A DNA stretch of 64,000 nt from Candidatus Omnitrophota bacterium (GTDB lineage Bacteria > Omnitrophota > Gorgyraeia > Zapsychrales > Zapsychraceae). Location: positions 907 to 64,906 of the forward strand of contig JANQMA010000014.1 in NCBI GenBank assembly GCA_028280285.1, in the 5' to 3' direction. The position numbers were made by a program, and so were the translations under genes. A model generated the notes under the pieces. The model saw only the letters and a list, made by a program, of their open reading frames with translations, made no database searches and was not told the origin of the DNA. Shown here in pieces: positions 4,105 to 57,845 of this stretch (position 1 is its first letter; every line of letters starts with the position of its first letter).

Positions 4105-5310
4105 ATGATTAAACGATTTATTTCCAATAGCTTACAAGACGAAATTTCCCAACCGGAAATCAATATCCTTCTGGGTCCCCGGCAGGTTGGTAAAACAACG
4201 CTTCTCAAACAGCTTAAAGCGTATGCCAAAAGAGCGAGGCGTACGCCTTGTTTTTTTGATTTAGAGCAGCCGCAAATTCTTGCCCAATTCAATAGTTCTC
4301 CAACAGAAGTGATCGAAACTTTAAAAAGTGCCGGTGATGTTATTTTTATCGATGAATTTCAATACATTCAAAATGCCTCAAAAATATTTAAGGCTATTTA
4401 TGATGCGGGTAAGAATATTAAAATTATCTGTTCAGGTTCTTCTTCGATTGAAATTCATAAGCATCTTAAGGAAAGCCTTGCGGGGCGAAAGTTTCTTTTT
4501 CGTATTTATCCACTATCATTTGATGAAATACGCAAAAGATTAAAGGGTTCTTTGGAAGCGTATCTACTTTATGGAGGCCTTCCCGGACTTACGCATACAG
4601 ACGATTTTGCACGAAAACGTTTGATGCTTGATGAGTTATTAAGCAGCTACATATTAAAAGATATTAAATCACTGATCAAAGAAGAGAACATCCGCGCGTT
4701 CAATCATCTGCTTTATTTGCTTGCGCAAAATCAAGGATCAACGATCTCAATAACCGGTCTTGCTAATCAGGTTAACTTGAGTGTAAAAGCGGTCAGTCGT
4801 TATTTGGACATTCTCGAGCAAACGTATGTTAATTTTAGAGTACATAGTTATTCTAATAATCTTGGTAATGAATTAAAAAAATCATGTAAACATTACCTTT
4901 ATGACCTGGGTATACGTAATGCACTGCTTAAGGACTTTTCGTCGATAAAAAATCGTAAGGATAAAGGGGTTTTATATGAAAGTTTTGTCTTTCTTTCGTT
5001 GCTTGTGCGGCTGCAAACGAACATGGAGTTGAAATTTTGGCGCACAAAAGACGGTGATGAAGTTGATTTCATTCTTTTAGAGAATCGCATTCCTTTGCCT
5101 ATTGAGGTAAAAAGTAAGTTAAACAGCTCCTCTATACCAAAGGGATTAAAAAGATTTCTACTGCGTTACAGCGATGTGAAACACGCTTATGTTGTTAATG
5201 AAAACCTTACCGATCAAATTACTTACAAGTCCTGTACCATTGATTTTATAACTTTTGAAAATATCTCCTCCATCATTACGTCTCCGCTCATAAGAATGGA
5301 GGCTTCTTGA
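4105..5310 (+). CDS. AAA+ ATPase of the DUF4143 / COG1373 family (401 aa), divergent paralog of the 2708-3868 gene
   Basis: Walker A (LGPRQVGKTTL) and Walker B (FIDEFQYI); same domain order as the gene at 2708; about 30% identity over the N-terminal region. Confidence 0.8.
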   Translation: MIKRFISNSLQDEISQPEINILLGPRQVGKTTLLKQLKAYAKRARRTPCFFDLEQPQILAQFNSSPTEVIETLKSAGDVIFIDEFQYIQNASKIFKAIYDAGKNIKIICSGSSSIEIHKHLKESLAGRKFLFRIYPLSFDEIRKRLKGSLEAYLLYGGLPGLTHTDDFARKRLMLDELLSSYILKDIKSLIKEENIRAFNHLLYLLAQNQGSTISITGLANQVNLSVKAVSRYLDILEQTYVNFRVHSYSNNLGNELKKSCKHYLYDLGIRNALLKDFSSIKNRKDKGVLYESFVFLSLLVRLQTNMELKFWRTKDGDEVDFILLENRIPLPIEVKSKLNSSSIPKGLKRFLLRYSDVKHAYVVNENLTDQITYKSCTIDFITFENISSIITSPLIRMEAS

Positions 5311-23831: not shown

Positions 23832-23995
23832 GATATACACATAATAGTACTCCCCGAAGACATTTCAAGAATTAATTGATAAAAGATTGATGCTTTCGAG
23901 ACTTTGAATATCAGAACTATTTTTTGCATTAATAATAATATATGTAATACTTGCACTACTATTTTTTAAAGTTATATAAGGAATTAATATCTGTG

Positions 23996-31006: not shown

Positions 31007-31018
31007 ATAAAAGGATAG

Positions 31019-31072
31019 TTGACGTCCATACACCCCTTCTATATAATAACCCCACCATTCAAGAAGAGGAGG
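31019..31072 (+). promoter_or_regulatory. Near-consensus sigma70 promoter (TTGACG-17-TATAAT) plus AGGAGG ribosome-binding site for acnA
   Basis: TTGACG at 31019-31024, 17-nt spacer, TATAAT at 31042-31047, AGGAGG at 31067-31072, ATG at 31079. Confidence 0.6.
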
Positions 31073-31078
31073 AATTTA

Positions 31079-43398: not shown

Positions 43399-43776
43399 AT
43401 GACAGTTACAGAAGAAAACATCGCCGCATTATTTGACCGTTGGAATGAATCTTTGCAAACAGGAAACCCTGCGAAAGTGGTCGATAATTATGCAGAGCGC
43501 TCTATTTTGCTGCCAACCGTTTCGAATAAACCACGCTTAACGCGCGCGGAAAAAGAAGATTATTTCGTTCACTTTTTAGCGAACTCACCCTCGGGAACGA
43601 TTGACATGCGTCATATTGATATCAACGGTGATGTGGCCGTTGATTCCGGGCTTTACTCATTTACCTTTGCTAAGACAGGGGATGTGGTTAAAGCGCGTTA
43701 TACGTTTGTTTATCAGTGGGATGGCGAACAATGGCTTATTATTAGTCATCACTCTTCAGGCATGCCGGAAGGTTAA
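43399..43776 (+). CDS. SnoaL-like / DUF4440 (NTF2-fold) protein
   Basis: About 125 aa with an NTF2-like pattern ([12 protein letters not shown] ... [14 protein letters not shown]). Confidence 0.5.
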
Positions 43777-44258
43777 AAATCAATTCTGATATGCGTGCTT
43801 TTTGTTTCGAGTTTACGGTGTGTAACGCCTGCCATGTCCAACATTTTCTTTGAGGCAATGTCGGTTGGTGTGCCGTTATATTTATCCGAGAGATAAACGA
43901 CTTCACTGATACCGGATTGAATAATCAATTTCGTACATTCATTGCACGGAAATAAGGCCACATAGATGCGGGCGCCTTTAAGACTCTGTACAGAGTTAAG
44001 AATGGCATTCGCTTCGGCATGAACAACGTAAGGATATTTTGTGTCATTTGTGTCTTCGGCCTCCCGTCCCCAAGGGAGATCCTCATCGGAACATCCGCGA
44101 GGAAATCCATTATACCCTATCCCGACAATCCGATTGTCCTGATTGACAATGCAAGCACCAACCTGGGTACTAGGATCTTTGCTGCGATGAGCAGAGAGAA
44201 GGGCAATGCCCATAAAGTATTCATCCCAACCAATATAATCTGTACGTTTTGTTTCCAT
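43773..44258 (-). CDS. comEB: dCMP deaminase (cytidine/deoxycytidylate deaminase family)
   Basis: HAEANAI and PCNECTKLI zinc-binding motifs. Confidence 0.85.
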
Positions 44259-44360
44259 GGTTTAAGTTATCCTTTCTTAAAGAGGTATTTAAGCTAGCAT
44301 ACTTGCGGTAAGTAATCAACTATTACAAGTGTTGATTGTTTTTAGATAGAAAAAATTTCC

Positions 44361-44404
44361 ATTTGACAAAACCACATGGGTGTGGATAATAAACAGAAAA
44401 ATTT
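44361..44404 (+). promoter_or_regulatory. Candidate zur-znu operon promoter (TTGACA-17-ATAATA) with an overlapping AT palindrome (candidate Zur box)
   Basis: TTGACA at 44361-44366, spacer aaaccacatgggtgtgg, then ATAATA; the downstream agaaaaattttct near-palindrome overlaps the predicted transcription start. Confidence 0.4.
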
Positions 44405-44415
44405 TCTATTTACCT

Positions 44416-44826
44416 ATGAGTGATTACTTATCAAAATTGAGAGAAAACGGTCTTAAGGTAACCCCTAAACGCTTGGCAATTATAGACTTTTTTGCCGAGA
44501 AAAATTGTGCGCTTACCCCCGAAGAAGTGTGGGTGCCACTGAAAAAAAAATTTGGCCAATTAGGTTTGCCAAGTGTCTATCGTAATCTTGAGGCACTTGC
44601 GGACTGTGGTATTTTAACGCGGATTCATCAATTTGATAATAAGCGTCATTATGCGCTTTGCCCTTGCAATCCATATCATAATTATCACATTGTATGTAGT
44701 GAATGTGGGAAGGTGGAGCAAGTTGAAGACAACCTTTTAGAAGGACTGACGGAGGTCAAAGGGTTTAAGGTACTGAATCATTTTCTACAATTAGAAGGGA
44801 TCTGTGAAACATGCGAAAAGAATTAA
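44416..44826 (+). CDS. zur: Fur-family zinc uptake regulator
   Basis: Fur fold with C-terminal CxxC pairs (CPCNP...CSECGK, CETCEK); directly upstream of znuACB. The start is placed at the ATG downstream of the predicted promoter rather than 44380. Confidence 0.75.
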   Translation: MSDYLSKLRENGLKVTPKRLAIIDFFAEKNCALTPEEVWVPLKKKFGQLGLPSVYRNLEALADCGILTRIHQFDNKRHYALCPCNPYHNYHIVCSECGKVEQVEDNLLEGLTEVKGFKVLNHFLQLEGICETCEKN

Positions 44827-45701
44827 TGAGATCAATTAAACTAACGCTATTAGTTTTTATTAGTTTGCTTACCGGTGTTCAGGGTGTTCATGCCAATGAA
44901 ACTGTGAAAGTGGCCACAACCATCCTGCCAATCAAAAATTTTGTTGAAAAAGTAGGCGGCGATAAGGTCGAAGCGTTCTCACTTATTCCTCCAGGGGGTA
45001 ACCCGCATACGTATGAACCAACGCCTGGTCAAATGAAGAAATTCTCAGAGGTAGATCTTTTTGTCAAACTAAGTATGCATTTTGAATTTGAAGAAACATG
45101 GATTCCAAAGCTTGAAAAACTTAATAAAAAAGTAAAAACTGTTAATTCCTCTAGAAATATCACACCAATTCCAATGATTGAAGGTGGACATCATGATCAT
45201 CACGATCACCATGATCACGGGCAGTGGGATCCGCACACATGGGTATCTATTAAAAACGCAATGGTTATAGCTTCAACAATTAAGGATGCCTTAGTCGATC
45301 ATGATCCGGCCAATGCAGACTATTATAGAGAAAATGCGCAAAACTTTTTGATTGAACTTGACGATCTTCATCAAGAAATTAAACAAAGTCTAAATGATAA
45401 AAAACAACGGGCCATTTTTATTTATCATCCTGCTTGGGGATATTTTGCCCATGATTATGGTTTAGAACAAGTTGTGATCGAGCAACATGGTAAAGAACCT
45501 TCGGCTAAAGATTTGGCTCGTTTTGTCAAACAAGCGAATGACAGGGGAATTAAAGCAATTTTTACATCTCCGGAGTTTAGTGATAAAAGCGCAAAAGTTA
45601 TTGCGAGTGAAATTGGCGGAAGGGTAGTTTCGATTGACCATTTAGGTGAAAACTTTGTGAGTAATATGCGTGAAGCAGGAAAAGCTTTTCAAGCTAATTG
45701 A
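44811..45701 (+). CDS. znuA: Zinc ABC transporter substrate-binding protein with a His-rich loop
   Basis: Signal peptide, cluster-9 solute-binding fold, and a GGHHDHHDHHDHGQWDPH loop typical of ZnuA. Confidence 0.9.
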   Translation: MRKELMRSIKLTLLVFISLLTGVQGVHANETVKVATTILPIKNFVEKVGGDKVEAFSLIPPGGNPHTYEPTPGQMKKFSEVDLFVKLSMHFEFEETWIPKLEKLNKKVKTVNSSRNITPIPMIEGGHHDHHDHHDHGQWDPHTWVSIKNAMVIASTIKDALVDHDPANADYYRENAQNFLIELDDLHQEIKQSLNDKKQRAIFIYHPAWGYFAHDYGLEQVVIEQHGKEPSAKDLARFVKQANDRGIKAIFTSPEFSDKSAKVIASEIGGRVVSIDHLGENFVSNMREAGKAFQAN

Positions 45702-46441
45702 TTTTTTATATGGATACTTGCGTGGCAGTTCAAAATGTTTCTTTTTCTTATGGAAATGTACAGGTTATTCACAATGTGAATCTGGATATTAAGGAAAAAG
45801 ATTTTTTAGGAATTATCGGTCCAAATGGTGGTGGTAAAACAACGTTGCTCAAAATTATACTTGGTTTACTTAAACCTACACAAGGTGATGTGACTGTATT
45901 TGGTCAGTCACCTGTTGAAGGCCGGCGAGAAATCGGTTATATTCCTCAAATCATGAACTTTGATCGTAATTTTCCGATAAGTGTGCGTGATGTTGTGTTG
46001 ATGGGATGTATGCCGCGCCGTGGGATTATGAAACGATGTACTTCGCAATGTTATAATCAATCGACCGAAGTACTAAAGAGTGTTGATATGCTTAATTATG
46101 CGGATCATCCAATGGGTCAATTATCGCAAGGCCAGCAACAACGTGTGTTTATTGCGCGGGCGCTTGCGGGTAATCCAAAGTTGCTTTTAATGGATGAGCC
46201 AACGGCGAGTGTTGATCCAACGATTCAATCAAATTTTTATTCTTTATTAGTTAAGCTTAATAAAGATATTCCGGTTGTTTTGGTTTCGCACGATATCGGC
46301 GTTATATCAGCGTATGTTACAAAGATTGCATGTTTAAATCGCGAATTGTATTATCATGATGCGAAAGAAATTACCGAAGAAGATTTTCAAAAAGTGTATG
46401 GTGCTTCGCATCGTTTTTTAAAGGAGCATAAACATGGTTGA
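45698..46441 (+). CDS. znuC: Zinc ABC transporter ATP-binding protein
   Basis: Walker A GPNGGGKTT, ABC signature LSQGQQQR and Walker B LLLMDEP. Confidence 0.9.
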   Translation: MIFYMDTCVAVQNVSFSYGNVQVIHNVNLDIKEKDFLGIIGPNGGGKTTLLKIILGLLKPTQGDVTVFGQSPVEGRREIGYIPQIMNFDRNFPISVRDVVLMGCMPRRGIMKRCTSQCYNQSTEVLKSVDMLNYADHPMGQLSQGQQQRVFIARALAGNPKLLLMDEPTASVDPTIQSNFYSLLVKLNKDIPVVLVSHDIGVISAYVTKIACLNRELYYHDAKEITEEDFQKVYGASHRFLKEHKHG

Positions 46442-47234
46442 GCTGCTTCAATTTGAGTTTATGCAAAATGCGTTTCTTGCGGCTATCCTGACAAGCATTG
46501 TTTGCGGTGTTATCGGAAGCTTTGTTGTGATTCGCCGCCTTGTATTTATTAGTAGTGGGATTGCGCATGCGGCGTTCGGAGGCATAGGGATTGGTTATTA
46601 TTTAGGAATTAATCCCTTGCTTGGCATTTTACCTTTTAGTTTACTCTCTGCACTAGGCATTGGAGTGATTAGCCAAAGAAAGTGGGCGTCGGAAGATAGT
46701 CTTATCGGGATTTTCTGGGCGGTGGGAATGTCGATCGGTGTGATTTTTATCGGGCTCACGCCGGGTTATGCGCCTGATTTATTTAGCTATTTATTTGGAA
46801 GTATTTTGACAGTTCCACGTTCAGATCTTTTTGTTATGAGTGGTTTGTGTGTCAGTGTGCTGCTAGTTGTTTATGCGTTCTATCGTCCTTTTGTGGCAAT
46901 GTGTTTTGAAGAAGAGTCAGCGCAAGTTTTAGGTATTCCCGTTGGTATTTTGTATCTTGTTTTATTATGTCTTATTGCCGTTGCTGTTGTGATTATGGTA
47001 AGGATCGTTGGTATTGTTCTTGTGATTGCGCTTTTAACCATTCCAGCGACGATTGCCCGGCAGTATACGCATAATCTTAAACGTATGATGTTACTCGCGA
47101 TTGCGATCGGCATTGGATGTACCTTTGGAGGGCTGTATTTGTCTTACAAGTTTGATTTGGCTTCAGGGGCTACAATTATTGTGGTTTCTGGTTTGGCGTT
47201 TATTATGTCAGTACTTGTGCCCAAAAAGGGATAA
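46434..47234 (+). CDS. znuB: Zinc ABC transporter permease
   Basis: Eight-TM ABC-3 family permease. Confidence 0.9.
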   Translation: MVELLQFEFMQNAFLAAILTSIVCGVIGSFVVIRRLVFISSGIAHAAFGGIGIGYYLGINPLLGILPFSLLSALGIGVISQRKWASEDSLIGIFWAVGMSIGVIFIGLTPGYAPDLFSYLFGSILTVPRSDLFVMSGLCVSVLLVVYAFYRPFVAMCFEEESAQVLGIPVGILYLVLLCLIAVAVVIMVRIVGIVLVIALLTIPATIARQYTHNLKRMMLLAIAIGIGCTFGGLYLSYKFDLASGATIIVVSGLAFIMSVLVPKKG

Positions 47235-47269
47235 ACTTTTTAAATTATAAATGAAAGAATATATTAAAA

Positions 47270-48385
47270 ATGAAACATGATGTTGTCATTATAGGCGCCG
47301 GAGCGGCAGGCGTAGGGATCGCTGCTATGCTTAAGGATTTGGGTGTGGAAGATATGCTCATTCTTGAACGGGACATTGTTGGCGCAACGTTCGATAAATG
47401 GCCGAAAGAAATGCAGCTGATCACGCCCTCGTTTACAACGAACTTCTATGGTCATCTTGATTTAAATGCCATTGCATCCGGAACATCTCCTGCGTTTACG
47501 CTACGCAAGGAACATCCAACCGGTCGAGAATATGCAAAATATTTAAGGGGGGTATCAGAATATTATGACTTGGATGTTAAGGGGAATACAAATGTCAGTG
47601 CAGTGACGTATTCTGATAACTCTTTTAAAATAGATATCGGTGAAGATAAGCCGATGGAGTCCCGTTTTGTGATTTGGGCCGCTGGTGAATTTCAGTATCC
47701 CAATACAAGCTCTTTTCCAGGCGCTGAATTGTGTTTGCATAACAGTTTGGTTGCCAGTTGGAAACAGATTAAAGGTGATGATATTTATATTATTGGTGGT
47801 TATGAAAGTGGCATTGATGCGGCCGTCCATTTAAGCCGGTTAGGTAAAAAGGTTTATGTGTTAGACGGTGATGCGCGCTGGAATAAAAAAACCACAGACC
47901 CCAGTGAGAATTTATCACCTTTTACCATGGAGAGATTAAAAGAAGAGCTGAAACATGGACGGATTGAACTCATTGGGGGTTCAAAGATTAAAGCTATTCG
48001 CCGTGAAGATGATCAGTATGTGATTGATGTTCAGAGAAAAGCTACCTCTTATCACAGCCAAGCACAACCTATTTTAGCGACAGGATTCAAAAGTAGTCTG
48101 ACGCTGATTAACAATCTGTTTGATTGGGAAGAGGAAGAATCATATGCGCTGCTTACGGAGGAGGATGAATCCACTAAAACACCTGGATTGTTTCTCGTTG
48201 GGCCGCAAGTGCGTCACGATGATCTTATTTTTTGTTTTATTTATAAATACCGCCAACGCTTTGGCGTGGTTGCCAATGCGATTGGAGAAAGATTAGGAAT
48301 GGATACAACAATGCTTGAGATATATAGAAGAGAAGGACTCTACTTAGATGACTTGAGCTGTTGTGGAGAGGAGTGTATTTGCTAA
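47270..48385 (+). CDS. FAD/NAD(P)-binding oxidoreductase with a Cys-rich C-terminal tail (CCGEECIC)
   Basis: N-terminal GxGxxG (VVIIGAGAAGVG) and a second dinucleotide-binding motif (IIGGYESGIDAA); ends ...DDLSCCGEECIC. Confidence 0.6.
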   Translation: MKHDVVIIGAGAAGVGIAAMLKDLGVEDMLILERDIVGATFDKWPKEMQLITPSFTTNFYGHLDLNAIASGTSPAFTLRKEHPTGREYAKYLRGVSEYYDLDVKGNTNVSAVTYSDNSFKIDIGEDKPMESRFVIWAAGEFQYPNTSSFPGAELCLHNSLVASWKQIKGDDIYIIGGYESGIDAAVHLSRLGKKVYVLDGDARWNKKTTDPSENLSPFTMERLKEELKHGRIELIGGSKIKAIRREDDQYVIDVQRKATSYHSQAQPILATGFKSSLTLINNLFDWEEEESYALLTEEDESTKTPGLFLVGPQVRHDDLIFCFIYKYRQRFGVVANAIGERLGMDTTMLEIYRREGLYLDDLSCCGEECIC

Positions 48386-48573
48386 TGAGTGAAGAATTAA
48401 TTCAAGGAAAAGTTAAATCTAAAATATGCTTGGCGTGGTTGTTTCAGCTTATAGCGAGTTTATCGTGGATGATCTCTGTTTTTGTCTATGGATCCTATGA
48501 GCTGGGAGACTGCTTACAATTGTTAGCGGCATCTGCGTGGACTGTATCTAATGTAATAAGTTTTTTTCAATAG
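48361..48573 (+). CDS. Small 2-TM membrane protein
   Basis: ORF overlapping the oxidoreductase 3' end; hydrophobic. Confidence 0.3.
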   Translation: MWRGVYLLMSEELIQGKVKSKICLAWLFQLIASLSWMISVFVYGSYELGDCLQLLAASAWTVSNVISFFQ

Positions 48574-48594
48574 ATAACTTAAGGAAAGAAATTA

Positions 48595-48810
48595 ATGACA
48601 GAAATAGATATTCCTAATACATACGAAGAATGGCTGAATTTATTGAAGTCTCATGCCAATGACGTTTTATCGAGAGAAAGAATTGATAAAAGAATTAAAG
48701 AATTGAGTAATCTCAACAATACAGAAACCATACAATTCTGTAACCTTTACGGGGATGAACATCGACAGAGGGTTATAGAATGGTTTAAGCGTGCCGCAGA
48801 AGAGTTGTAA
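48595..48810 (+). CDS. Small hypothetical protein (71 aa)
   Basis: ORF sitting between operon genes. Confidence 0.3.
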   Translation: MTEIDIPNTYEEWLNLLKSHANDVLSRERIDKRIKELSNLNNTETIQFCNLYGDEHRQRVIEWFKRAAEEL

Positions 48811-48824
48811 AATAGAGATTAAAG

Positions 48825-49796
48825 ATGAACGATCATAACAAAACTCCAATCACAATCGTTGCTGGCTTTTTAGGCGCAGGTAAAACGACTTTACTGAACA
48901 ACATGCTTTCTTTGCGGAAGGATCGTAAATTAGCTGTTATTGTTAATGATTTCGGTTCGATTAACATTGATAGCCGTTTAATCAAGTCCGTTGATGAAGG
49001 TATCATTGAATTATCTGATGGATGTGTTTGCTGTAGCATCCGGGCAAAGTTTTTTGACACAGTTATGCAATTATTAAAATCTTCTTATGCCCCTGATCAT
49101 ATCATTGTTGAATGCAGTGGTATATCCGATCCGGGATTGGTTTCAACCACATTACTTTCGCCTATGCTTCGACCTTTATTAAAGGTTGATGGAGTTATTA
49201 CTGTCGTTGATGCCAAGAATGTGCTGTCATTCTACAAAGCGTATCCGACACTAGTTGAAAAACAAATAGAATTTTCTAATTTTGTTGTTCTTAATAAGAT
49301 TGATCTGATTTCAAAGGAGATTAAAACAGAGGCTATAAATTTTGTTAGAAAGGTCCAGCCTGAGGTTCGTATTATTGAAGCAGTTAATGCGAATGTGCCG
49401 GTTGATCTATTATTAGGATTTTCAGAGGGTAATGGTGAGTTGGATAATTCGCTCAACGAAGAATTAAATGAGTATGATACGACACAATGGTTTGACTCGA
49501 TAAGTTATCGAACCGATAAAGTATTTTCTAAAAGGGCGTTAAATGATTGGAAAGATCACTTGCCTCCTGAGATTGTTAGGGCTAAAGGTATACTCAATTT
49601 GGGCAAGAAAGAAGGTATCGTTAATTTTAGTTTAGTCGGCAGTTGGAGTAAATTCGAAAAAATGACAGCTGTAACTGAAATAAGTGAGTCCGAAATGGTT
49701 TTGATTGGCAGTAAAGGATGGGCAGAGGACTACGATATTAATAAAAAATTGGATCAATGTTTAGAAGGCAATTATAAGGAAAGCGGTAAATGTTAA
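48825..49796 (+). CDS. COG0523 / CobW-family GTPase (putative zinc metallochaperone, ZigA/YeiR-like)
   Basis: GTPase P-loop GFLGAGKTTLLN and the metal-binding GCVCCS motif characteristic of COG0523. Confidence 0.85.
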   Translation: MNDHNKTPITIVAGFLGAGKTTLLNNMLSLRKDRKLAVIVNDFGSINIDSRLIKSVDEGIIELSDGCVCCSIRAKFFDTVMQLLKSSYAPDHIIVECSGISDPGLVSTTLLSPMLRPLLKVDGVITVVDAKNVLSFYKAYPTLVEKQIEFSNFVVLNKIDLISKEIKTEAINFVRKVQPEVRIIEAVNANVPVDLLLGFSEGNGELDNSLNEELNEYDTTQWFDSISYRTDKVFSKRALNDWKDHLPPEIVRAKGILNLGKKEGIVNFSLVGSWSKFEKMTAVTEISESEMVLIGSKGWAEDYDINKKLDQCLEGNYKESGKC

Positions 49797-51238
49797 AAGT
49801 CTATAATTCTCTTACACGAACAAAGGAAGAATTTAAAACACTTGAACCCAACAAGGTAAAAATGTATGTCTGTGGGCCGACAGTTTACGATCTTTTGCAT
49901 ATCGGTAATTTTCGCGGTGCGATTATCTTCAATTTGGTTCGTAATTGGCTTGAGCAGTCTGGTTATGAAGTTACGTTTGTTTATAATTATACAGACATCG
50001 ATGACAAAATTATCAATAAGGCCAATGAGGAAGGAAAAGATGCGCTGGATGTTTCACGGCATTATATAGAGAAATTTAAAGAAGATTATGCCGCGTTAAA
50101 GCTTCCGGCCCATTCACATAATCCAAAATGTAGCGATTATATGCCGCAAATGGTTGAATTTATCAATACGCTGATTGAAAAAGGCAATGCTTATGAGGTG
50201 GATGGTTCTGTGTTTTATGCGATTGACAGTTTTGATGAATACGGAAAGTTAAGTGGCAAGAATATTGAGCAACTCCAAGCGGGGTATCGTGTCGACTCTG
50301 ATAAACGAAAACGAAATCTTCTTGATTTCATATTATGGAAGCCGGCGAAGGAAGGAGAGCCGGCGTGGGATTCCCCGTGGGGAGCTGGCCGGCCCGGATG
50401 GCATATTGAATGTTCAACGATGAATTATGCTATTCATGGTGAACAAATTGATATTCACGGTGGAGGAATTGATTTAATTTTTCCACATCATGAAAACGAA
50501 ATTGCTCAAACCGAAGCAAGGACAGGCAAGCAATTTGCGACCTATTGGATGCATAATAATTTCATTAATATGGGTGATGAAAAAATGTCCAAGTCTTTAG
50601 GCAATATTCTAAAGGCGCGCGATTTTATACAAAAATATCATTCCGAAATTTTAAAATTCCTTATTCTTTCTGTTCATTATCGTTCATTGTTAAATGCCAA
50701 CAAAGTGGCCGTTGAGCAAGCTATTGTTGGACTGAGACGTATTTATGGCGCATTACTGGAAGCGGGGAAAATTGTTAATCAAACTAAAGAAATCGGTGAG
50801 CATTTAGATTTCCAAAAGAAAATTGAACAAGCAGATAAAGAAGTGACTGCTGCGCTTAATGATGACTTTAATACGCCGCAGACTTTTGCCGCCATTTTTG
50901 AAATTGTGCGTACGTTTAATGGAGTATGTAAAGAGAAAGGGAAGTTACCCGTCAAGGCTGGGGCAGCAAAAATATTTATCGATTGGGTTAAAGCTAAAGG
51001 ACAATTGATGGGATTATTCCAAGAAGTCCCATCGGAATTATTACAGAGATTAAACGAAATATTGTTAGAGGAGAAAGGTTTATCGAGCGATAAGATTTTG
51101 GGATTAATGAAAGAACGTTGGACGGCACGTGAGGAGAAAAATTACAAACGGGCAGATGAAATTCGTGATGAACTGCTTGCGATGGGTGTGGAAGTCAAGG
51201 ACGGGGTTGAAGGAGTTCAGTGGCAAGTGAAGGCATGA
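49790..51238 (+). CDS. cysS: Cysteinyl-tRNA synthetase (zinc ligands retained)
   Basis: HIGN (HIGH-like) and KMSKS class-I motifs; Zn-ligand Cys/His positions conserved (CGPTVYD, HIECST, HGGGIDLIFPHHENE). Confidence 0.9.
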   Translation: MLKVYNSLTRTKEEFKTLEPNKVKMYVCGPTVYDLLHIGNFRGAIIFNLVRNWLEQSGYEVTFVYNYTDIDDKIINKANEEGKDALDVSRHYIEKFKEDYAALKLPAHSHNPKCSDYMPQMVEFINTLIEKGNAYEVDGSVFYAIDSFDEYGKLSGKNIEQLQAGYRVDSDKRKRNLLDFILWKPAKEGEPAWDSPWGAGRPGWHIECSTMNYAIHGEQIDIHGGGIDLIFPHHENEIAQTEARTGKQFATYWMHNNFINMGDEKMSKSLGNILKARDFIQKYHSEILKFLILSVHYRSLLNANKVAVEQAIVGLRRIYGALLEAGKIVNQTKEIGEHLDFQKKIEQADKEVTAALNDDFNTPQTFAAIFEIVRTFNGVCKEKGKLPVKAGAAKIFIDWVKAKGQLMGLFQEVPSELLQRLNEILLEEKGLSSDKILGLMKERWTAREEKNYKRADEIRDELLAMGVEVKDGVEGVQWQVKA

Positions 51239-51283
51239 GCGACTTTAAAGAAATTTTAAACAGGTTATCTAAAAGGAGAAAAA

Positions 51284-51772
51284 ATGAGTGATAAGCTTGA
51301 AATATTTGGGGTAAGAAATAGCGTAGAAGAAGTTGAAGAGGGTAATTTTCTCGCGCCTAAATTTGATAAAGACGGGTTAATTCCGGTCGTCACAACAGAC
51401 TATGATACCGGAGAAGTTTTGATGCATGCCTACATGAATAATGAGGCTCTGGCTAAAACAATCGAAATCGGTGAGGCGGTTTACTATAGCCGCAGCCGTA
51501 AGGTTATATGGCATAAAGGGGCAACCAGTGGTCTTGTTCAAAAAGTAAAAGAGTTACGGATTGATGATGATCAAGATTGTGTTTGGATGCGTGTTGACGT
51601 TCAAGGTGGCGCGAGTTGTCATGTCGGTTATCGTTCTTGTTTTTATAGAAGTGTTAATTTTGCGGATAAAGCAAAAGGTCAAGAGCCTGTTCAGCTTAAT
51701 TTTGAAGAAACACAGAAAGTGTTTGACCCCAAAGAAGTCTATGGAGACGCTCCCAATCCAACACAGCTTTAG
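51284..51772 (+). CDS. hisI: Phosphoribosyl-AMP cyclohydrolase
   Basis: WHKGATSG motif and the C...C zinc site (CHVGYRSC); about 160 aa. Confidence 0.8.
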
Positions 51773-51780
51773 AGTCAAAG

Positions 51781-51813
51781 GGGTCAGAGCAAAAATTTGC
51801 TCTGACCCTTTTT
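51781..51813 (+). terminator. Strong Rho-independent terminator ending the zur...hisI operon
   Basis: gggtcagagcaaa-aa-tttgctctgaccc (13-bp perfect stem) followed by ttttt. Confidence 0.85.
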
Positions 51814-51836: not shown

Positions 51837-53042
51837 ATGAAGAAAGTTGTTTTATTAATGATCATCATGAGTTTTGCGATGTGCTCACTCGCTCATGCAG
51901 ACATCAATGAAGAAGTTCTTCGTGAGCTGCGCGCTTTAAAAGCACGCGTGATTGAGCTTGAAGCAAAAGTTCAGCAATATGAGCGCCAAGATATGGCCCG
52001 TACGCATGATGACCATGCCGGGCATGATGATCATCACGGACATGATCACGCAGCAGATGAAAAATGGGGCCCGTTTGGCGAGCATGATCATGGTGGGTTA
52101 GATTTTGACCGCATATCGATTCATGGAGGAGTTGACCTTCGCCTGACCGATGCTGAGGAAGCAGAAAAAGATGCTGTTCTGCAAGAGGCGGAAATCGCAC
52201 TTGAGGCAGAATTAACGGATTGGTTAACCGGTTTTGTGAGCATCACCAAAGAAAATGGTGAATCGGCCGCTGTTGAAGAAGCTTTTGGTGAGATGACTAT
52301 CGATGAATGGAACCTGAAGCTTAAAGGGGGGAAGTATTTTGTTCCTTTTGGTGCTCTTAATCAATTTGAATACTTTGATCGCCCTACCATTACCCGTTCC
52401 CCGATGGAAGAAGATTTCTTTGGTGAAGAACCTTGGATTGATACAGGGGCCACAGCGCAATTATTATTGCCTGAATTCGTTGATGGGTGGAAATCAGCTT
52501 TAACCGTTGGTTTATTTAATGGGGATAACGAAGCAAGCTTCGGTGACGATGACGAGGCGACATCAGAAAGCAATAACAATTTCCCTCTTTTGGTCCGCTA
52601 CCAAAAACATTATGAGGACGATTGGGGTTCTTTGAGTGGTGGATTTTCCTTTGCGCATGGGAATTCCGATGCCGCTGAAGATTTTGAGACAACAGTTAAA
52701 GGGGCCGATTTAGCACTTAATATCGGCAATTTTGACTTTCTTTTCGAGTATATTCATCGTGATAAAGAAGAAGCTGGCAATGGGTTAGTTGGTTATGGGT
52801 ATGATCTCAGTGCCTCATACACCGTGCCGCTCGAATATAAGTATCTGGAGTATGTAGAATTTCTTTTTGCCTACGGCATGAGTGATGCGAGCGAATCGAC
52901 CGAGAAAGAGCGCTTCGTACCGCAGCTGACGCTTGGCTTTACAGAGAATACAAAGCTACGCTTTCTCTATGAATTCCTAGAAGAGAAGCCAACGGATACA
53001 GACAATAATCGCTTCATATCCCAATTTGCATTCCAATTTTAA
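51837..53042 (+). CDS. His-rich outer-membrane beta-barrel protein (putative metal-regulated porin/receptor)
   Basis: Signal peptide, coiled-coil segment, His-rich stretch HDDHAGHDDHHGHDHAADEKWGPFGEHDHGG, alternating beta-strand pattern, and a C-terminal aromatic residue (…FAFQF). Confidence 0.6.
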   Translation: MKKVVLLMIIMSFAMCSLAHADINEEVLRELRALKARVIELEAKVQQYERQDMARTHDDHAGHDDHHGHDHAADEKWGPFGEHDHGGLDFDRISIHGGVDLRLTDAEEAEKDAVLQEAEIALEAELTDWLTGFVSITKENGESAAVEEAFGEMTIDEWNLKLKGGKYFVPFGALNQFEYFDRPTITRSPMEEDFFGEEPWIDTGATAQLLLPEFVDGWKSALTVGLFNGDNEASFGDDDEATSESNNNFPLLVRYQKHYEDDWGSLSGGFSFAHGNSDAAEDFETTVKGADLALNIGNFDFLFEYIHRDKEEAGNGLVGYGYDLSASYTVPLEYKYLEYVEFLFAYGMSDASESTEKERFVPQLTLGFTENTKLRFLYEFLEEKPTDTDNNRFISQFAFQF

Positions 53043-53056: not shown

Positions 53057-53140
53057 CCTATTCAACTGCGTCAGTTGAATAGGCTCCAATTAGACCTAAC
53101 CTCAAGGGTGTTCTAACGACACCCTTGACTTTTTTATTTT
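53057..53140 (+). terminator. Two tandem hairpins after the OMP gene; the second is an intrinsic terminator
   Basis: gcctattcaactg-cgt-cagttgaataggc at 53057-53085, then caagggtgt-tctaacg-acacccttg followed by acttttttatttt at 53103-53140. Confidence 0.7.
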
Positions 53141-53171: not shown

Positions 53172-53615
53172 ATGGATCAACGGATTAATAATGAAAAGGA
53201 AAAGTTTGTCAGCTTTCTTGAGAAAAACAGGGTTAGGTTCACACCGGCCCGTAAGATCGTTTTTGAAGAAGTGATGAAGGCGCACGGGCATTTTGCGGCT
53301 GAGGAGCTGGTCAAACAGTGTAAAAAGCATAAGCGTAATGTTTCCCGCGCAAGTGTTTACCGGTGCCTCCGTGAGATGTTGGAGGCAGGCATCATCCGCC
53401 AGACAGCCTATGGGGAGAAACATGCCCATTTTGAGCATATTTATGATGAAAAACCACATCACCACGCGCGCTGCATTCGGTGTGGTGATCTATTGGAAAT
53501 ACCTGATTTAGATGAAGAAAAACTTTACGCATCAATCCTTAAAAAGAAGAATTTTAAGGTAATCGGCCATGAAATGGTTTTTTATGGATTGTGCGATAGA
53601 TGTCAAGATGACTAA
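53172..53615 (+). CDS. Fur-family metalloregulator (second paralog; Fur/Mur/Zur-like)
   Basis: Fur fold with HHHxRCxRCG and a C-terminal CDRC motif. Confidence 0.8.
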   Translation: MDQRINNEKEKFVSFLEKNRVRFTPARKIVFEEVMKAHGHFAAEELVKQCKKHKRNVSRASVYRCLREMLEAGIIRQTAYGEKHAHFEHIYDEKPHHHARCIRCGDLLEIPDLDEEKLYASILKKKNFKVIGHEMVFYGLCDRCQDD

Positions 53616-53630
53616 AATTTTTTAACTATA

Positions 53631-53652
53631 AAATGAGATAGTATCTCACTTT
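53631..53652 (+). promoter_or_regulatory. 21-bp near-perfect palindrome (Fur-box-like operator) upstream of the TroA-like ABC operon
   Basis: aaatgagatagtatctcacttt with the 7-1-7 core tgagata g tatctca; about 20 nt before the GTG start at 53670. Confidence 0.5.
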
Positions 53653-53669
53653 AAGGAAGCGAGGAACCT

Positions 53670-54575
53670 GTGAAAAAATTATTTCTTTTCACAATTATGT
53701 TAAGTTTCGTATTAACCGCTCAGCCAGCTGTGGCGCAAAAAAAGCTTAATGTGGTCACCACGATCGGCCAAATCACCGATATCGTCACAATCATTGGTGG
53801 TGAAAATATAGAGGTAACGGGCCTAATGGGGGCAGGTGTTGATCCGCACCTTTACCGCGCTTCGGAGGGAGATGTTCATATTCTCTCAAAAGCTGATGTT
53901 ATTTTTTATAATGGGCTTAACTTGGAAGCCAAACTCGGCAAAATCTTAGCCAAAATGAAACGTGATAAAACAATTGTTGCCTTAGGAGAAAGCGTGCCGA
54001 AAAATTTACTACTTGATAGCGAGGATTACGTAGGGCACTCTGATCCTCATGTTTGGTTTAATGTCGAGCACTGGAGCCTTGTTGCCCAAAAAATAAGTAA
54101 TGTCCTGATCGAAAAAGATCCGGATCATACCGCTGATTATCAAAAAAACACCGATAAACTCATTGCCAGACTTAAAACGCTCCAAACATATGTTCTTAAT
54201 AGATCACAAGAGTTAAATAAAACACAACGTGTTTTGGTCACCGCCCATGATGCCTTTCGTTATTTCGGAAAAAAGTATGACTTTGAAGTTGTAGGCTTAC
54301 AAGGTATAAGCACTGAATCGGAAGCAGGCACAAAGGACGTCGCTGAACTGGCCGATTTTATCGCAGAGCGAAAGATCAAGGCCATCTTTATCGAATCGTC
54401 TGTTCCTGAACGTAATATCAAAGCGGTGCAGGAAGCTGTAAACGCGCGCGGCTGGAATGTTGAAATCGGTGGAGAACTTTTCTCAGACGCTATGGGTGAT
54501 GAAGGTACCGTGGAAGGAACATATATCGGCATGATTACGCATAATATCGATACGATTGTCGGTGCGTTAAAATAG
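53670..54575 (+). CDS. Metal (Mn/Fe/Zn) ABC transporter substrate-binding protein, TroA/MntC-like, GTG start
   Basis: Signal peptide and cluster-9 SBP fold without a His-rich loop (metal-ligand His in HLYR and HVWF). Confidence 0.8.
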   Translation: MKKLFLFTIMLSFVLTAQPAVAQKKLNVVTTIGQITDIVTIIGGENIEVTGLMGAGVDPHLYRASEGDVHILSKADVIFYNGLNLEAKLGKILAKMKRDKTIVALGESVPKNLLLDSEDYVGHSDPHVWFNVEHWSLVAQKISNVLIEKDPDHTADYQKNTDKLIARLKTLQTYVLNRSQELNKTQRVLVTAHDAFRYFGKKYDFEVVGLQGISTESEAGTKDVAELADFIAERKIKAIFIESSVPERNIKAVQEAVNARGWNVEIGGELFSDAMGDEGTVEGTYIGMITHNIDTIVGALK

Positions 54576-54648
54576 GTGAAAGGTAAAAGATGAATGGTAA
54601 AAGATTGAAATTATTTTTAACCTTTAACCTTCAACCCTTAACCTTACA
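54575..54648. repeat. Heptamer-built inverted repeat (GGTAAAA / TTTAACC units)
   Basis: aggtaaa agatgaa tggtaaa agattga ... tttaacc tttaacc ttcaacc cttaacc ttac. Confidence 0.55.
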
Positions 54649-54666
54649 AGTAAGGATAAACAAACA

Positions 54667-55428
54667 ATGACCAAACAAACTGAACTTTCTGCCATATCAA
54701 TCAATGACCTGACGGTTGCTTATAATGAGAAGCCTGTTTTGTGGGATATTGACTTTCATGCGCCACAAGGGGTGCTGCTCGCCATCGTCGGTCCAAACGG
54801 AGCTGGTAAATCAACACTGATAAAATCTATCCTTGGGTTGGTGAAACCTGCCGCCGGACAGATTCTTGTCTTTGACAATGACTACCGTCCGCAATCAAGG
54901 CTGATCGGTTATGTACCGCAAAAGAATTCTGTCGACTGGGATTTCCCAACCAGTGTACTTGATGTTGTCATGATGGGCTGTTACGGCGAACTCGGCTGGT
55001 TTAAACGCCCGAGCCACAAAGAACGTGAGCTCGCTATCAACTGTCTGGAAAAAGTCGGTATGAAGGAATTTATGAACCGGCAAATTAGTCAACTCTCCGG
55101 CGGCCAGCAGCAGCGTGTTTTTATTGCGCGTGCCTTTATGCAGGATGCGCCTATTTATTTAATGGATGAGCCGTTTGCCGGTGTTGATGCGGCCACCGAA
55201 AAAAGTATTATCGCTCTTTTAAGAGAGTTAAAGGACAAAGGCAAGACGGTTATCTGCGTTCATCATGATCTTCAAACACTCAAAGAATATTTTGACTGGG
55301 TAATGCTCCTTAATGTGCGGCGCCTCGCATTGGGACCTGTGAATGAAGTGTTAACAGCACAAAATCTGAAGAAAGCTTATGGAGGAAAGGCAGGGTTCCT
55401 CGCGGGGATGAATACGGAGGAGAAATAA
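54667..55428 (+). CDS. Metal ABC transporter ATP-binding protein
   Basis: Walker A GPNGAGKST, signature LSGGQQQR and Walker B YLMDEP. Confidence 0.9.
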   Translation: MTKQTELSAISINDLTVAYNEKPVLWDIDFHAPQGVLLAIVGPNGAGKSTLIKSILGLVKPAAGQILVFDNDYRPQSRLIGYVPQKNSVDWDFPTSVLDVVMMGCYGELGWFKRPSHKERELAINCLEKVGMKEFMNRQISQLSGGQQQRVFIARAFMQDAPIYLMDEPFAGVDAATEKSIIALLRELKDKGKTVICVHHDLQTLKEYFDWVMLLNVRRLALGPVNEVLTAQNLKKAYGGKAGFLAGMNTEEK

Positions 55429-55440
55429 AAGAACTAAAGC

Positions 55441-55508
55441 GTAATTAGTCGTTAGTCATTGGTCATTAGTGTTTAATAGTTCTAATGACTAAAGACCAAT
55501 GACCAAAG
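55441..55508. repeat. Heptamer-built inverted repeat (AGTCATT / AATGACY units)
   Basis: gtaatt agtcgtt agtcatt ggtcatt agtg ... ctaatga ctaaaga ccaatga ccaaag. Confidence 0.6.
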
Positions 55509-55514
55509 ATCAAA

Positions 55515-56654
55515 ATGATTGAATTTATCATCACATTATTTTCCGACCACACGCTACGCATTGTTGCCCTAGGCGCGATCACCATCGGTATAACCGCCGG
55601 AAGCCTTGGAGCCTTTGCCGTCCTGCGTCAACAAAGCTTACTTGGAGATGCCATTGCGCACGCAACACTCCCCGGGGTGTGCCTTGCATTTTTAATCACA
55701 CAAAGTAAAAGCAGTTTAATACTTCTTATCGGCGCAGCATTAGCCGGCTGGATCGGAACATTATTTTTGATGCTGATTACTCGAAATACACGGATTAAAA
55801 AGGATGCTGCGCTCGGCATTATTTTATCGGTCTTTTTTGGATTCGGTTTGGTATTACTTACCATTGTTCAAAAACTACCGACGGCAACGAAAGCAGGGCT
55901 AAATAAATTTTTATTCGGTAATGCCGCGACGCTCCTTCAAGAAGATCTGACAATTATTGCCACATTAAGTGCGGTTGTCCTCATGACACTTTTACTTTTA
56001 TGGAAAGAGGTGAAGGTATGCGTGTTTGATGAAGGATTTGCCAAAAGCATAGGGATTAAGATAACATTTGTCGATATTCTTTTAACTACACTGATTGTTA
56101 TCGCCATTGTGATTGGCCTGCAAACCGTTGGTGTTGTGCTTATGAGCGCCATGCTTGTTGCGCCGGCCGCTGCCGCCCGGCAATGGACGGACAATTTAAG
56201 TGTTATGGTTTTGTTATCGGCTGCTTTTGGTGCCTTATCCGGGTTATCAGGAGCTATAACAAGCAGCCTGGTGAGCAATCTTCCTACGGGGCCGACAATT
56301 GTAATTTTCTTAAGTACGTTGGTTGTAATTTCTTTATGTTTTGCGCCACGTAGAGGCATTATGTGGGATATCATCCGTTATAATAAAAGCCGTAAACAAA
56401 TCCAGACAACAACTATGCTTAAAAACCTTTTGCTGTTTTCAGAAATTAATACAAACGATCCGTTTCATCCGCATGATATTGCCGCTTTGGATGCGATCGG
56501 ACGCGGGGCCATCGATCAGACGATGCAGGAGTTAAAAAACAAAGGATGGGCCCAGCAGTTTAAAGATAAACGCTGGGCACTAACGCCTGTCGGACTAAAA
56601 GAGGCCAGAAGTTTGACAGAGGAGTATGAGAAGGGATTAATTACAGAAAATTAA
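55515..56654 (+). CDS. ABC-3 metal permease fused to a C-terminal DtxR/MntR-like winged-helix domain (YtgC-YtgR-like fusion)
   Basis: Eight-TM permease core (about 285 aa) followed by an ~90-aa extension (about 56367-56654). Its ...TMQELKNKGWAQQFKDKRWALTPVGLKEA segment matches the recognition-helix/wing pattern of DtxR (…[27 protein letters not shown]). Confidence 0.6.
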   Translation: MIEFIITLFSDHTLRIVALGAITIGITAGSLGAFAVLRQQSLLGDAIAHATLPGVCLAFLITQSKSSLILLIGAALAGWIGTLFLMLITRNTRIKKDAALGIILSVFFGFGLVLLTIVQKLPTATKAGLNKFLFGNAATLLQEDLTIIATLSAVVLMTLLLLWKEVKVCVFDEGFAKSIGIKITFVDILLTTLIVIAIVIGLQTVGVVLMSAMLVAPAAAARQWTDNLSVMVLLSAAFGALSGLSGAITSSLVSNLPTGPTIVIFLSTLVVISLCFAPRRGIMWDIIRYNKSRKQIQTTTMLKNLLLFSEINTNDPFHPHDIAALDAIGRGAIDQTMQELKNKGWAQQFKDKRWALTPVGLKEARSLTEEYEKGLITEN

Positions 56655-56659
56655 AAAGT

Positions 56660-56730
56660 GATGCTAGATCCTTGATACTGGATATTTAATCTAGCATCCA
56701 GGATCTGGGATCCAGTATCCAACGTCTAGA
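56660..56730. repeat. Heptamer-built inverted repeat (NNNNGAT / ATCNNNN units)
   Basis: gatgcta gatcctt gatactg gatattt aat ctagcat ccaggat ctgggat ccagtat ccaacgt ctagac. Confidence 0.6.
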
Positions 56731-56732
56731 CT

Positions 56733-57845
56733 ATGCTCACAACACAATTCGAAATAATGTTGCTCGCATCACTCACGGCCGTCACATGCGCCTTGCCGGG
56801 GGTATTCCTCATTTTACGTCGGGTCGCCCTGATGAGTGATGCCATCAGTCACGCAATACTGCTCGGTATTGTTCTGGCTTTCTTTATAACAAAAAATCTT
56901 TCATCCCCATTATTGATTGTTGGGGCAACGCTTGTCGGAATACTCACTGTAAGTCTTACCGAGCTTATCATCCGCACGCACAAGCTCAAAAAAGATGCGG
57001 CGATCGGTTTGGTATTTCCGCTGCTTTTTTCCATCGGTGTAGTATTAATTAATAAATACACAGGCGATGTGCATATCGATGCCGACTGTGTGTTATTTGG
57101 TGAACTGGCCTTTGCACCGTTTAACCGATTATATATAAACGATATTGATTTGGGTCCGCAGGGGATTTGGGTTATATCGGCCGCTTTAATGCTTAACATC
57201 ACGTTTATCTTTTTCTTTTATAAAGAACTGAAATTATCCACCTTTGATGCCGGTCTTGCCGCAGCCTTAGGGTTCTTTCCGGGATTAATCCATTACGCGC
57301 TTATGACACTTGTCAGTATCACAGCCGTTTCCGCCTTTGAAAGCGTAGGTTCAATCCTTGTTGTTGCGCTTATGATTGCGCCACCGGCCGGCGCTTATCT
57401 TTTAACGAACAGACTCTCGCATATGATCTTTATTAGTGCAGGCATAGGCATTATTTCGGCCATCGGCGGCTACGGCATGGCCTACGCCTTTAATGCCAAC
57501 ATTGCCGGCTCCATGGCAACCATCAGCGGCGTGATCTTTATTCTGATTTTGTTTTTCGCCCCGGAAAGAGGAATCCTGGCCAATATGGTTGTGCGCAAAT
57601 GGCATAAGTGGGACTTTGCCGCTTCAACACTGACCGTACATCTCCTTCAGGCCGAGATAGAGGATGCGGATTATACCGAGCATATTGTCAGCCACATGAT
57701 CCGCCACATGAAATGGACACCGGAATACACCTCAGAAGTTATTGCCCAGTGCATTCAGGAAGAATTTATTGAAAAGCACGGCAGCAAGCTTGTCCTCACA
57801 CCCTATGGACGCGAAAAAGCCAATCTTTCTTTGGTTAAAAATTGA
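56733..57845 (+). CDS. Second ABC-3 metal permease, also with a C-terminal DtxR-like winged-helix extension
   Basis: Permease core plus an ~90-aa tail (about 57570-57845) whose ...SEVIAQCIQEEFIEKHGSKLVLTPYGREKA segment again matches the DtxR helix-turn-helix and wing. Confidence 0.55.
   Translation: MLTTQFEIMLLASLTAVTCALPGVFLILRRVALMSDAISHAILLGIVLAFFITKNLSSPLLIVGATLVGILTVSLTELIIRTHKLKKDAAIGLVFPLLFSIGVVLINKYTGDVHIDADCVLFGELAFAPFNRLYINDIDLGPQGIWVISAALMLNITFIFFFYKELKLSTFDAGLAAALGFFPGLIHYALMTLVSITAVSAFESVGSILVVALMIAPPAGAYLLTNRLSHMIFISAGIGIISAIGGYGMAYAFNANIAGSMATISGVIFILILFFAPERGILANMVVRKWHKWDFAASTLTVHLLQAEIEDADYTEHIVSHMIRHMKWTPEYTSEVIAQCIQEEFIEKHGSKLVLTPYGREKANLSLVKN

Follow-up and report, generated by a model that had tools for sequence, protein, structure and literature searches.

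A putative zinc-starvation operon linking a Fur-family regulator and ZnuABC to a COG0523 GTPase, CysRS and HisI in a Candidatus Omnitrophota genome

The stretch of DNA considered here (the window) comprises 64,000 nucleotides of contig JANQMA010000014.1 (positions 907 to 64,906) in assembly GCA_028280285.1 of a Candidatus Omnitrophota bacterium. Between 44416 and 51772 its plus strand carries ten open reading frames (ORFs), all co-directional and tightly packed, which are discussed here as a putative zinc-starvation operon. Window proteins were assigned to families by Pfam and NCBIfam profile searches with equivalog cut-offs and by sequence searches of the PDB. The first gene encodes a Fur-family regulator (44416-44826; PF01475, E = 1e-23), presumably an autoregulated Zur, and it lies inside the cluster; clusters of the type described by Haas et al. 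in 2009 (PMC2770081) have such a repressor gene within or next to them. Next come a ZnuA-type substrate-binding protein with a signal peptide and the His-rich loop HHDHHDHHDH (44811-45701; PF01297, E = 4e-75), a ZnuC-type ABC ATPase (45698-46441, starting at TTG 45698 or ATG 45722; PF00005) and a ZnuB-type ABC-3 permease (46434-47234; PF00950, E = 5e-80), an importer of the kind that marks zinc-limitation clusters. They are followed by an FAD/NAD(P) flavoprotein of the PDB 3D1C family ending in CCGEECIC (47270-48385; PF13738, Pyr_redox_3, E = 3e-95), a small predicted two-helix membrane protein (48385-48573) belonging to a group of 62-70 aa proteins encoded beside flavoprotein genes, and a soluble protein of 71 aa (48595-48810), for which family searches gave no match and none of the fetched loci a homologue. 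The last three genes encode a COG0523 G3E GTPase with the P-loop GFLGAGKTT and a GCVCC motif (48825-49796; cobW E = 4e-52, CobW_C E = 2e-11), a full-length cysteinyl-tRNA synthetase (CysRS; 49790-51238; TIGR00435, 511 bits against a cut-off of 340) and a monofunctional HisI of what we call the DDDQD subfamily (51284-51772; PRK00051, 159.5 bits against 126; PF01502, E = 1e-30).

The junctions measure, in gene order, -16, -4, -8, +35, -1, +21, +14, -7 and +45 nt, with overlaps that include 1 nt between the flavoprotein and the small ORF and 7 nt between the COG0523 gene and cysS. An initial annotation, made from the sequence, had proposed a Zur-controlled operon of zur, znuACB, an oxidoreductase, a COG0523 GTPase, cysS and hisI, all on the plus strand; its family-level calls hold, as does the placing of an FAD oxidoreductase with a CCGEECIC tail and two small proteins between znuB and the GTPase. 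Its statement that every junction overlaps or is shorter than 40 nt applies to eight of the nine, the exception being the 45 nt between cysS and hisI. Furthermore, an Rfam search of 43.5-54 kb returned no riboswitch or leader, only a single match at chance level (E = 0.91, 23 bits against a gathering score of 80).

A sigma-70-type promoter, TTGACA-16-GATAAT (44363-44390, plus strand), precedes the first gene; it agrees with the consensus at 11 of 12 positions and is the top-scoring promoter-like site across the 11.3 kb scanned. Two copies of a 23-bp palindrome overlap it. The upstream box, TAGATAGAAAAAATTTCCATTTG (44343-44365; 28.8-29.4 bits), has its final 3 nt inside the -35 hexamer, and the downstream box, TAAACAGAAAA-A-TTTTCTATTTA (44390-44412), is an 11-1-11 palindrome with agaaaaattttct (44395-44407) as its core; it begins at the last base of the -10 element, spans the predicted start site and stops 4 nt before the ATG. 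The boxes are identical at 18 of 23 positions and lie 47 bp apart from center to center. A weight matrix built from eight sites found just two matches in the 64-kb window (27.5 and 29.4 bits), both at this promoter, the shuffled-window control giving a mean of 0.3 matches of at least 12 bits. With a 13-site matrix both promoter boxes scored about 29 bits and were the only window sites above 8.1 bits, the score of the next-best site; no box was found with it before the flavoprotein, cysS, hisI, porin-like or second fur gene (best scores -4 to -22 bits).

The boxes are conserved in related genomes. When the DNA upstream of the fur homologue was aligned with that of four relatives (L002, L003, L082 and L084), the -35 element, an extended -10 element and the downstream box were conserved, and the remaining non-coding DNA had diverged; TTGAC and a TGTnnAtAAT -10 region are kept in all four. 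Seven related contigs carry the box, which there precedes a Fur-family gene, znuA or the flavoprotein gene; three of the seven had no part in training the matrix. In these three, which score 21-30 bits, it stands before fur and again before a flavoprotein-...-hisI-COG0523-COG0523 unit (L086), upstream of znuA-znuB-flavoprotein-small ORF (L130), and before fur (L134). All remaining matrix matches in 1.95 Mb of fetched loci reach at most 15 bits. The candidate Zur box that the initial annotation had seen in the promoter at 44361 is thus a palindrome present twice and conserved in relatives, and the suggested search for further copies gave none in the window and recurrences in those seven contigs.

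The symmetrised consensus, TAAATGGAAATAATTTCCATTTA, resembles Zur sites of Corynebacterium glutamicum that were verified by band shift, for example TAATGGAAATTGTTTTCAATA, and there too the boxes overlap the -35 and -10 elements (PMC2823685). Paired Zur boxes at -35 and -10, formed by AT-rich palindromes of about 21-23 bp, are also known from the Bacillus subtilis yciC (zagA) and Streptomyces coelicolor znuA promoters (PMC6103462). The window boxes differ from the latter in the detail of their sequence, they have the 47-bp spacing in common with L082 and L084, where the upstream box is likewise present, and their binding is a prediction. A palindromic operator that overlaps the core promoter and recurs at other promoters of the presumed regulon is also what clusters of the Haas et al. 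type show. There is, then, good comparative evidence for the 23-bp box as the predicted operator of this Fur-family regulator, and its distribution indicates that znuABC, the flavoprotein, hisI and COG0523 probably belong to the regulon of this regulator in the lineage. It also provides a predicted Zur-box consensus for a poorly studied, Omnitrophota-related lineage.

At the other end of the cluster, a ViennaRNA scan for a hairpin followed by a T-tract revealed an intrinsic-terminator-like structure at 51777-51813 on the plus strand (-25.8 kcal/mol, z = -6.8), a stable, GC-rich stem of 16-17 bp running directly into TTTTT. No other canonical terminator was found on the plus strand between 44.3 and 51.8 kb, in agreement with the earlier placing of the sole strong terminator at 51781-51813. 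Because the U tract is short, termination may be incomplete, and a gene for a porin-like protein of 401 aa with a signal peptide begins only 24 nt past the hairpin (51837-53042, plus strand). The N-terminus of this protein contains a stretch rich in His (HDDHAGHDDHHGHDH...EHDHGG), and its match to the LbtU-family siderophore porin model is weak (34 bits, cut-off 90). Neither a promoter-like site nor an operator box of its own was found for the gene, which may be expressed by read-through as an extension of the operon. A second terminator, with an 11-bp stem and T6 (53102-53128, plus strand), closes the block.

The region is read here as a single operon under a zinc-sensing repressor of the Fur family (Zur), switched on when zinc runs short, and to this reading we assign a probability of roughly 60%. 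A single Zur-repressed transcript is the best reading because the box is unique to this promoter, is conserved in relatives and is like verified Zur boxes; the comparative evidence, including the recurrence of the box at loci outside the training set, supports what the initial annotation had proposed. At sufficient zinc, the regulator encoded by the first gene would bind both 23-bp palindromes, one at the -35 element and one over the -10 element and start site, and would block RNA polymerase. When zinc is scarce it would leave the DNA, and a transcript of about 7.4 kb would run from 44.4 kb to the 51.8-kb hairpin, possibly with some read-through into the His-rich porin-like gene. Such a transcript would encode the regulator, ZnuABC, the flavoprotein with its membrane partner, the 71-aa protein, the COG0523 GTPase, CysRS and HisI. 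We infer from this arrangement the co-transcription of all ten genes and a chaperone-client relationship within them: the cell would make more CysRS and HisI, next to the chaperone, at the very time when filling their metal sites is most difficult. The joint increase of two zinc-site enzymes and a chaperone fits what is known, since CysRS is among the aminoacyl-tRNA synthetases that are under-metallated and less abundant in zinc-starved Acinetobacter baumannii (PMC12458113), and since few bacterial clients of COG0523 zinc chaperones are known (Chem Rev 2024, PMC11672702).

The status of the two enzymes within their cell bears on this reading. The window CysRS has its catalytic, DALR and anticodon-binding domains, matches 8QHP and 1LI5 in the PDB, and keeps all four zinc ligands (C28, C209, H234 and E238 in E. 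coli numbering). The motifs in question agree with the PDB alignment. The best matches of the window CysRS among 5.8 billion proteins (61-64% identity) include cysS of Omnitrophota metagenome-assembled genomes (MAGs), followed by Bdellovibrionota cysS at 49-55%, an ordering that looks like vertical descent of a main copy. Six Omnitrophota loci (L002, L003, L082/L083, L084 and L134) have the order fur, a 226-aa His/Cys-rich membrane protein, yidD in some cases, cysS and a deaminase, and their Fur proteins are 58-61% identical to the window regulator in the five loci measured. The linkage of fur and cysS in these relatives means that it is older than the window operon.

Some further features of these loci are worth recording. 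The membrane protein after the Zur-like gene is a multi-pass protein of 226-227 aa (L002 9014-9694, L003 7738-8421, L082 8972-9652, L084 8992-9672 and L134 4745-5428) whose C-terminus is rich in His and Cys, for example CSHSHCKHKDVMEEEHPH; Pfam and NCBIfam gave no match for it, and we note it as a candidate for an uncharacterised zinc transporter. The deaminase directly 3' of cysS in the relatives is of a CMP/dCMP type different from the ComEB-type dCMP deaminase of the window, a zinc enzyme (HAE and PCxxC motifs) encoded on the minus strand at 43773-44258, divergent from the Zur promoter region. In another Omnitrophota relative (L135 5782-8461), cysS is divergent from a gene for FolE2, the type-2 GTP cyclohydrolase I (PF02649). 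FolE2 is the classic zinc-independent enzyme of Zur regulons.

The window HisI aligns with 1ZPS (E = 1.4e-33) and scores as a monofunctional HisI equivalog, and its metal site is altered. Three thiols hold the catalytic zinc of every phosphoribosyl-AMP cyclohydrolase (PRA-CH) domain with a solved structure, namely, the Cys of D-C-D-x-D, the Cys of C-H and the Cys of S-C-F, which are described as universally conserved; the first of them is Cys126 in MtHISN2 and C86, between Asp85 and Asp87, in M. thermoautotrophicus HisI (PMC8102479). In the window protein this motif (D94-D98) reads DDDQD, so that the first ligand is Asp (D95) and the three-Cys site is incomplete, with the other two ligand Cys and the catalytic His kept. 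The claim that both linked enzymes retain their zinc ligands therefore stands for CysRS and fails for one Cys of HisI. All 12 subfamily proteins that were aligned likewise read DDDQD, as do 41 of the 42 related loci in which the motif could be located, the sole canonical DCDGD belonging to a 49%-identical outlier; the retrieval of these loci was biased to the subfamily, and the counts are not a survey of all HisI. A Cys four residues after the lost ligand was considered as its replacement and rejected because this residue, which follows the DDDQD motif, is T, A or S in many members. Members are 72-90% identical across Omnitrophota, Lentisphaerales and Planctomycetota and also occur on proteobacteria-like contigs. 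Consequently, there is a large HisI subfamily without one zinc-ligand Cys that the literature calls universally conserved.

The neighborhoods of this subfamily include contexts with and without zinc genes. Outside zinc contexts, a DDDQD hisI has gyrB and purE in its vicinity in a complete Planctomycetales genome and forms moaB-dcd-hisI in L088, and judging by such neighbors the subfamily appears to serve as the ordinary HisI in some genomes. In L087 (650-1030), the gene after a 90%-identical hisI has the N-terminal motif of Ni-superoxide dismutase (HCEVPCGIYDD). Beside zinc genes, hisI is found with ZnuA (L092), with COG0523 plus FolE (L093) and with a Fur-family gene plus DUF1636 (L102); as several loci place hisI beside zinc genes, the association is a repeated one, agreeing with Haas et al. 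2009. Moreover, cysS lies directly beside a DDDQD-type hisI in 16 of 43 metagenome loci (L090, L094, L097-L099, L101, L103, L104, L107, L112, L113, L115, L117, L119, L126 and L128). The cysS genes concerned are 36-46% identical to that of the window, and the pairs are mostly divergent and sometimes convergent, with folE in between in L104 and L107. Their contigs range in GC content from 27% to 65%, yidD and sufE often flank cysS, and full-length cysS genes keep their zinc ligands where checkable, except in L104, which has Gly at the position of C209. We know of no published explanation for this recurrent cysS-hisI neighborhood.

These observations also allow us to consider whether cysS and hisI are extra zinc-starvation paralogues (CysRS2 and HisI2) serving as a backup for canonical copies at other genomic sites, as in the Zur regulons of Cupriavidus and Pseudomonas. 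Backup is the pattern in every published case (PMC2770081), including hisI2 of Pseudomonas protegens, which is induced by zinc limitation in the Pseudomonas fluorescens/protegens regulon; the altered metal site of HisI (Cys to Asp) could go with a different metal requirement, and the 64 kb visible here leave room for second copies elsewhere in the genome. On the contrary, the CysRS is full length, has four zinc ligands and reaches 511 bits on its equivalog model, and its orthologues in Omnitrophota MAGs sit in a conserved yidD-cysS-deaminase context beside the same regulator, as vertical inheritance of a main copy would look. DDDQD HisI proteins also occur in non-zinc contexts, in the complete Planctomycetales genome and on many proteobacteria-like contigs, and no second cysS, hisI or COG0523 gene lies within the window. 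The window also encodes LeuC, IlvD, AroC and a cytochrome oxidase, gene content that suggests a free-living organism with biosynthetic competence. Paralogous backups are therefore quite unlikely in our view, and the earlier suggestion of low-zinc backup copies is not borne out, given two enzymes that look like ordinary full-length equivalogs, a cysS orthologue beside the regulator in relatives and a HisI subfamily that also lives outside zinc clusters. From sequence comparison, CysRS and HisI are most likely the normal copies of the cell.

Several observations weigh against a single Zur-repressed transcript. The first concerns the sensor, since hidden Markov model (HMM) and PDB comparisons place the regulator nearer to Fur and PerR than to Zur. 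The protein has two CxxC pairs, with a Cys/His-rich stretch ahead of the first, and NCBIfam and PDB sequence searches did not separate it as Zur as opposed to Fur or PerR. The regulator could accordingly be of the Fur, Mur or PerR type and sense something other than zinc (Fe, Mn or peroxide), with an operon that serves that metal, and ZnuA-family binding proteins are indeed able to carry Mn or Fe. We regard this as very unlikely, for the His-rich loop of ZnuA is typical of zinc-specific members, a COG0523 gene stands in the operon, the operator is like verified Zur boxes, and a second Fur-family gene (53172-53615), with a different palindrome and a TroA/MntC-like transporter, is available for Mn or Fe. 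Because the profile and structure searches rank the regulator as they do, zinc specificity rests on context and operator similarity, and the proposal that zinc is the signal of the putative Zur operon draws on the His-rich loop of ZnuA, a COG0523 gene with the GCVCC motif and the operator resemblance.

The second Fur-family gene opens a neighboring block (53172-57845), in which genes for the TroA/MntC-like binding protein, for an ATPase and for two long permeases come after the regulator. A 12-1-12 palindrome, TAAAATGAGATA-G-TATCTCACTTTA (53629-53653), lies between this regulator gene and its transporter genes. The block is probably a separate Mn, Fe or Zn system.

The remaining objections to the single transcript concern cysS and hisI. 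Close relatives of the HisI also lie outside zinc clusters (L085, L087 and L088). In the closest relatives, a putative transporter gene stands between the regulator and cysS, joined in L003 and L134 by a gene on the opposite strand, and cysS may have its own promoter there, before yidD. If cysS is the sole copy, it could not be fully repressed at high zinc, so leaky transcription or internal promoters would be needed; this need for zinc-independent expression is the main weakness of the single-operon model. It leads to an alternative in which only the promoter-proximal genes (zur-znuACB and perhaps the flavoprotein) respond to zinc, and COG0523-cysS-hisI is transcribed mainly from internal constitutive promoters, its position being a leftover of synteny in the lineage that carries no function. 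Local gene order could explain the position of cysS, as fur and cysS are linked in relatives without znuABC, COG0523 or hisI, and an essential aminoacyl-tRNA synthetase must be expressed when zinc is plentiful. Several promoter-like sites agreeing with the consensus at 9 of 12 positions are present inside the COG0523 gene. However, these internal sites are no more numerous than expected by chance, no terminator separates znuB from hisI, and the junctions are overlapping or very short throughout, including the 7 nt between COG0523 and cysS. In addition, the L086 box directly before the flavoprotein-hisI-COG0523 unit is an independent link to the regulator in a second genome. Partial zinc control is thus unlikely in our judgment, and we retain the single Zur-repressed operon.

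Within this operon, the COG0523 protein shows the domain structure expected of YciC/ZigA-type zinc chaperones (COG0523 subfamily 1), that is, a G3E domain with the P-loop, a CxCC metal motif and CobW_C, and it matches YjiA (1NIJ) with E = 1.5e-25. It stays below the equivalog cut-offs for ZigA (NF038288, 149 bits against 600) and CobW (TIGR02475, 152 bits against 332) and is thus a generic COG0523 member. The 7-nt overlap with cysS suggests translational coupling and would be compatible with chaperone-assisted metallation. COG0523 chaperone-client pairs include ZagA-FolE in B. subtilis (bioRxiv 10.1101/594382) and MigC-MurD in A. baumannii (PMC12208494). As in these pairs, the window GTPase is presumed to be induced by zinc starvation and to support one or few zinc enzymes; unlike them, its candidate clients, CysRS and HisI, are suggested solely by gene order and translational coupling. 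A chaperone gene that overlaps cysS and is followed by hisI nevertheless names two concrete candidate COG0523 clients. ZNG1 and METAP1 form the corresponding chaperone-client pair in eukaryotes.

The flavoprotein is the other component that sets this cluster apart. It aligns end to end with PDB 3D1C (E = 1.5e-74), a structural-genomics entry annotated as a flavin-containing putative monooxygenase, and the two have the CCxxxCxC tail in common. The YpdA/Bdr bacillithiol-disulfide reductases (7A76 and 7A7B) are distant, with E of about 1e-10 to 1e-11, and assignment to that group was rejected (TIGR04018, 96.6 bits against a cut-off of 339.9). Homologues 52-75% identical to the window protein occur in Bacteroidota, SAR202, cyanobacteria, Roseiflexus and many marine samples, and a C-terminal (L/M)(D/E)DL(S/G)(C/D)C-x3-C-x-C was present in all 20 homologues inspected. 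A homologue of the two-helix protein, of about 65 aa, is encoded directly after the flavoprotein gene in the window, L130, L132 and L133; in L086 it lies two genes beyond, in the same cluster. The pairing is therefore seen in the window and four other loci, covering at least three phyla. Furthermore, in the window, L086, L130 and L131 the flavoprotein gene has ZnuABC genes next to it or close by. The L086 cluster reads znuA-znuC-znuB-fur, then box-flavoprotein-184 aa-small membrane protein-hisI-COG0523-COG0523-CobW_C, with HisI 88% and the flavoprotein 74% identical to their window counterparts. In the literature on CzcO flavoproteins and on cyanobacterial zinc, nothing was found on the 3D1C-type family. 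The role of the flavoprotein and its membrane partner is presumably redox, and a widespread flavoprotein family with a solved structure is here linked to zinc homeostasis.

It is important to consider how far this departs from known systems. Haas et al. (PMC2770081) described clusters of zur, znuABC and COG0523 with HisI and CysRS, zinc ligands conserved, and suggested increased copy number under zinc deficiency as the explanation; their Cupriavidus metallidurans cluster combines YciC and FolE2 with CysS, QueD, Cam and PyrC paralogues. The general idea therefore goes back to 2009, and the general picture is unchanged. Like them, the window groups a Fur-family regulator, znuABC, COG0523, CysRS and HisI behind a palindromic operator, and its CysRS keeps the zinc ligands as their paralogues do. 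Unlike them, it has its nearest relatives among Omnitrophota MAGs, forms one apparent transcription unit that includes the regulator, carries enzymes that look like primary copies rather than paralogues, contains a HisI without one of the three Cys ligands and includes the flavoprotein and membrane-protein pair. What goes beyond the known picture is the apparent primary copies, the COG0523-cysS coupling, the flavoprotein/membrane pair and the HisI ligand substitution. A zinc RNA-seq paper on P. denitrificans makes no mention of hisI or cysS. The closest described counterpart of the oxidoreductase is C. glutamicum cg0795, the most strongly derepressed gene in a zur mutant, which is paired with the COG0523 gene cg0794 (PMC2823685). 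An oxidoreductase is co-regulated with COG0523 by Zur there and, on our reading, here; cg0794 and cg0795 are divergent, whereas the window genes are co-directional.

A broader proposal can be put forward tentatively: the sole CysRS and the sole HisI of the cell might be placed in a zinc-starvation operon, cysS being coupled to COG0523, and the 3D1C flavoprotein with its 65-aa partner might be an unrecognised zinc-starvation component present in several phyla. We hold this to be possible and less than probable. If true, the clients of a zinc chaperone would be written next to the chaperone gene in the genome.

Outside the cluster, other parts of the window contain two adjoining AAA_14/DUF4143 ATPase genes (2708-5310), very large ORFs of 2351 and 917 aa (23951-33772) and a 1411-aa ORF without a Pfam match (58012-62247).

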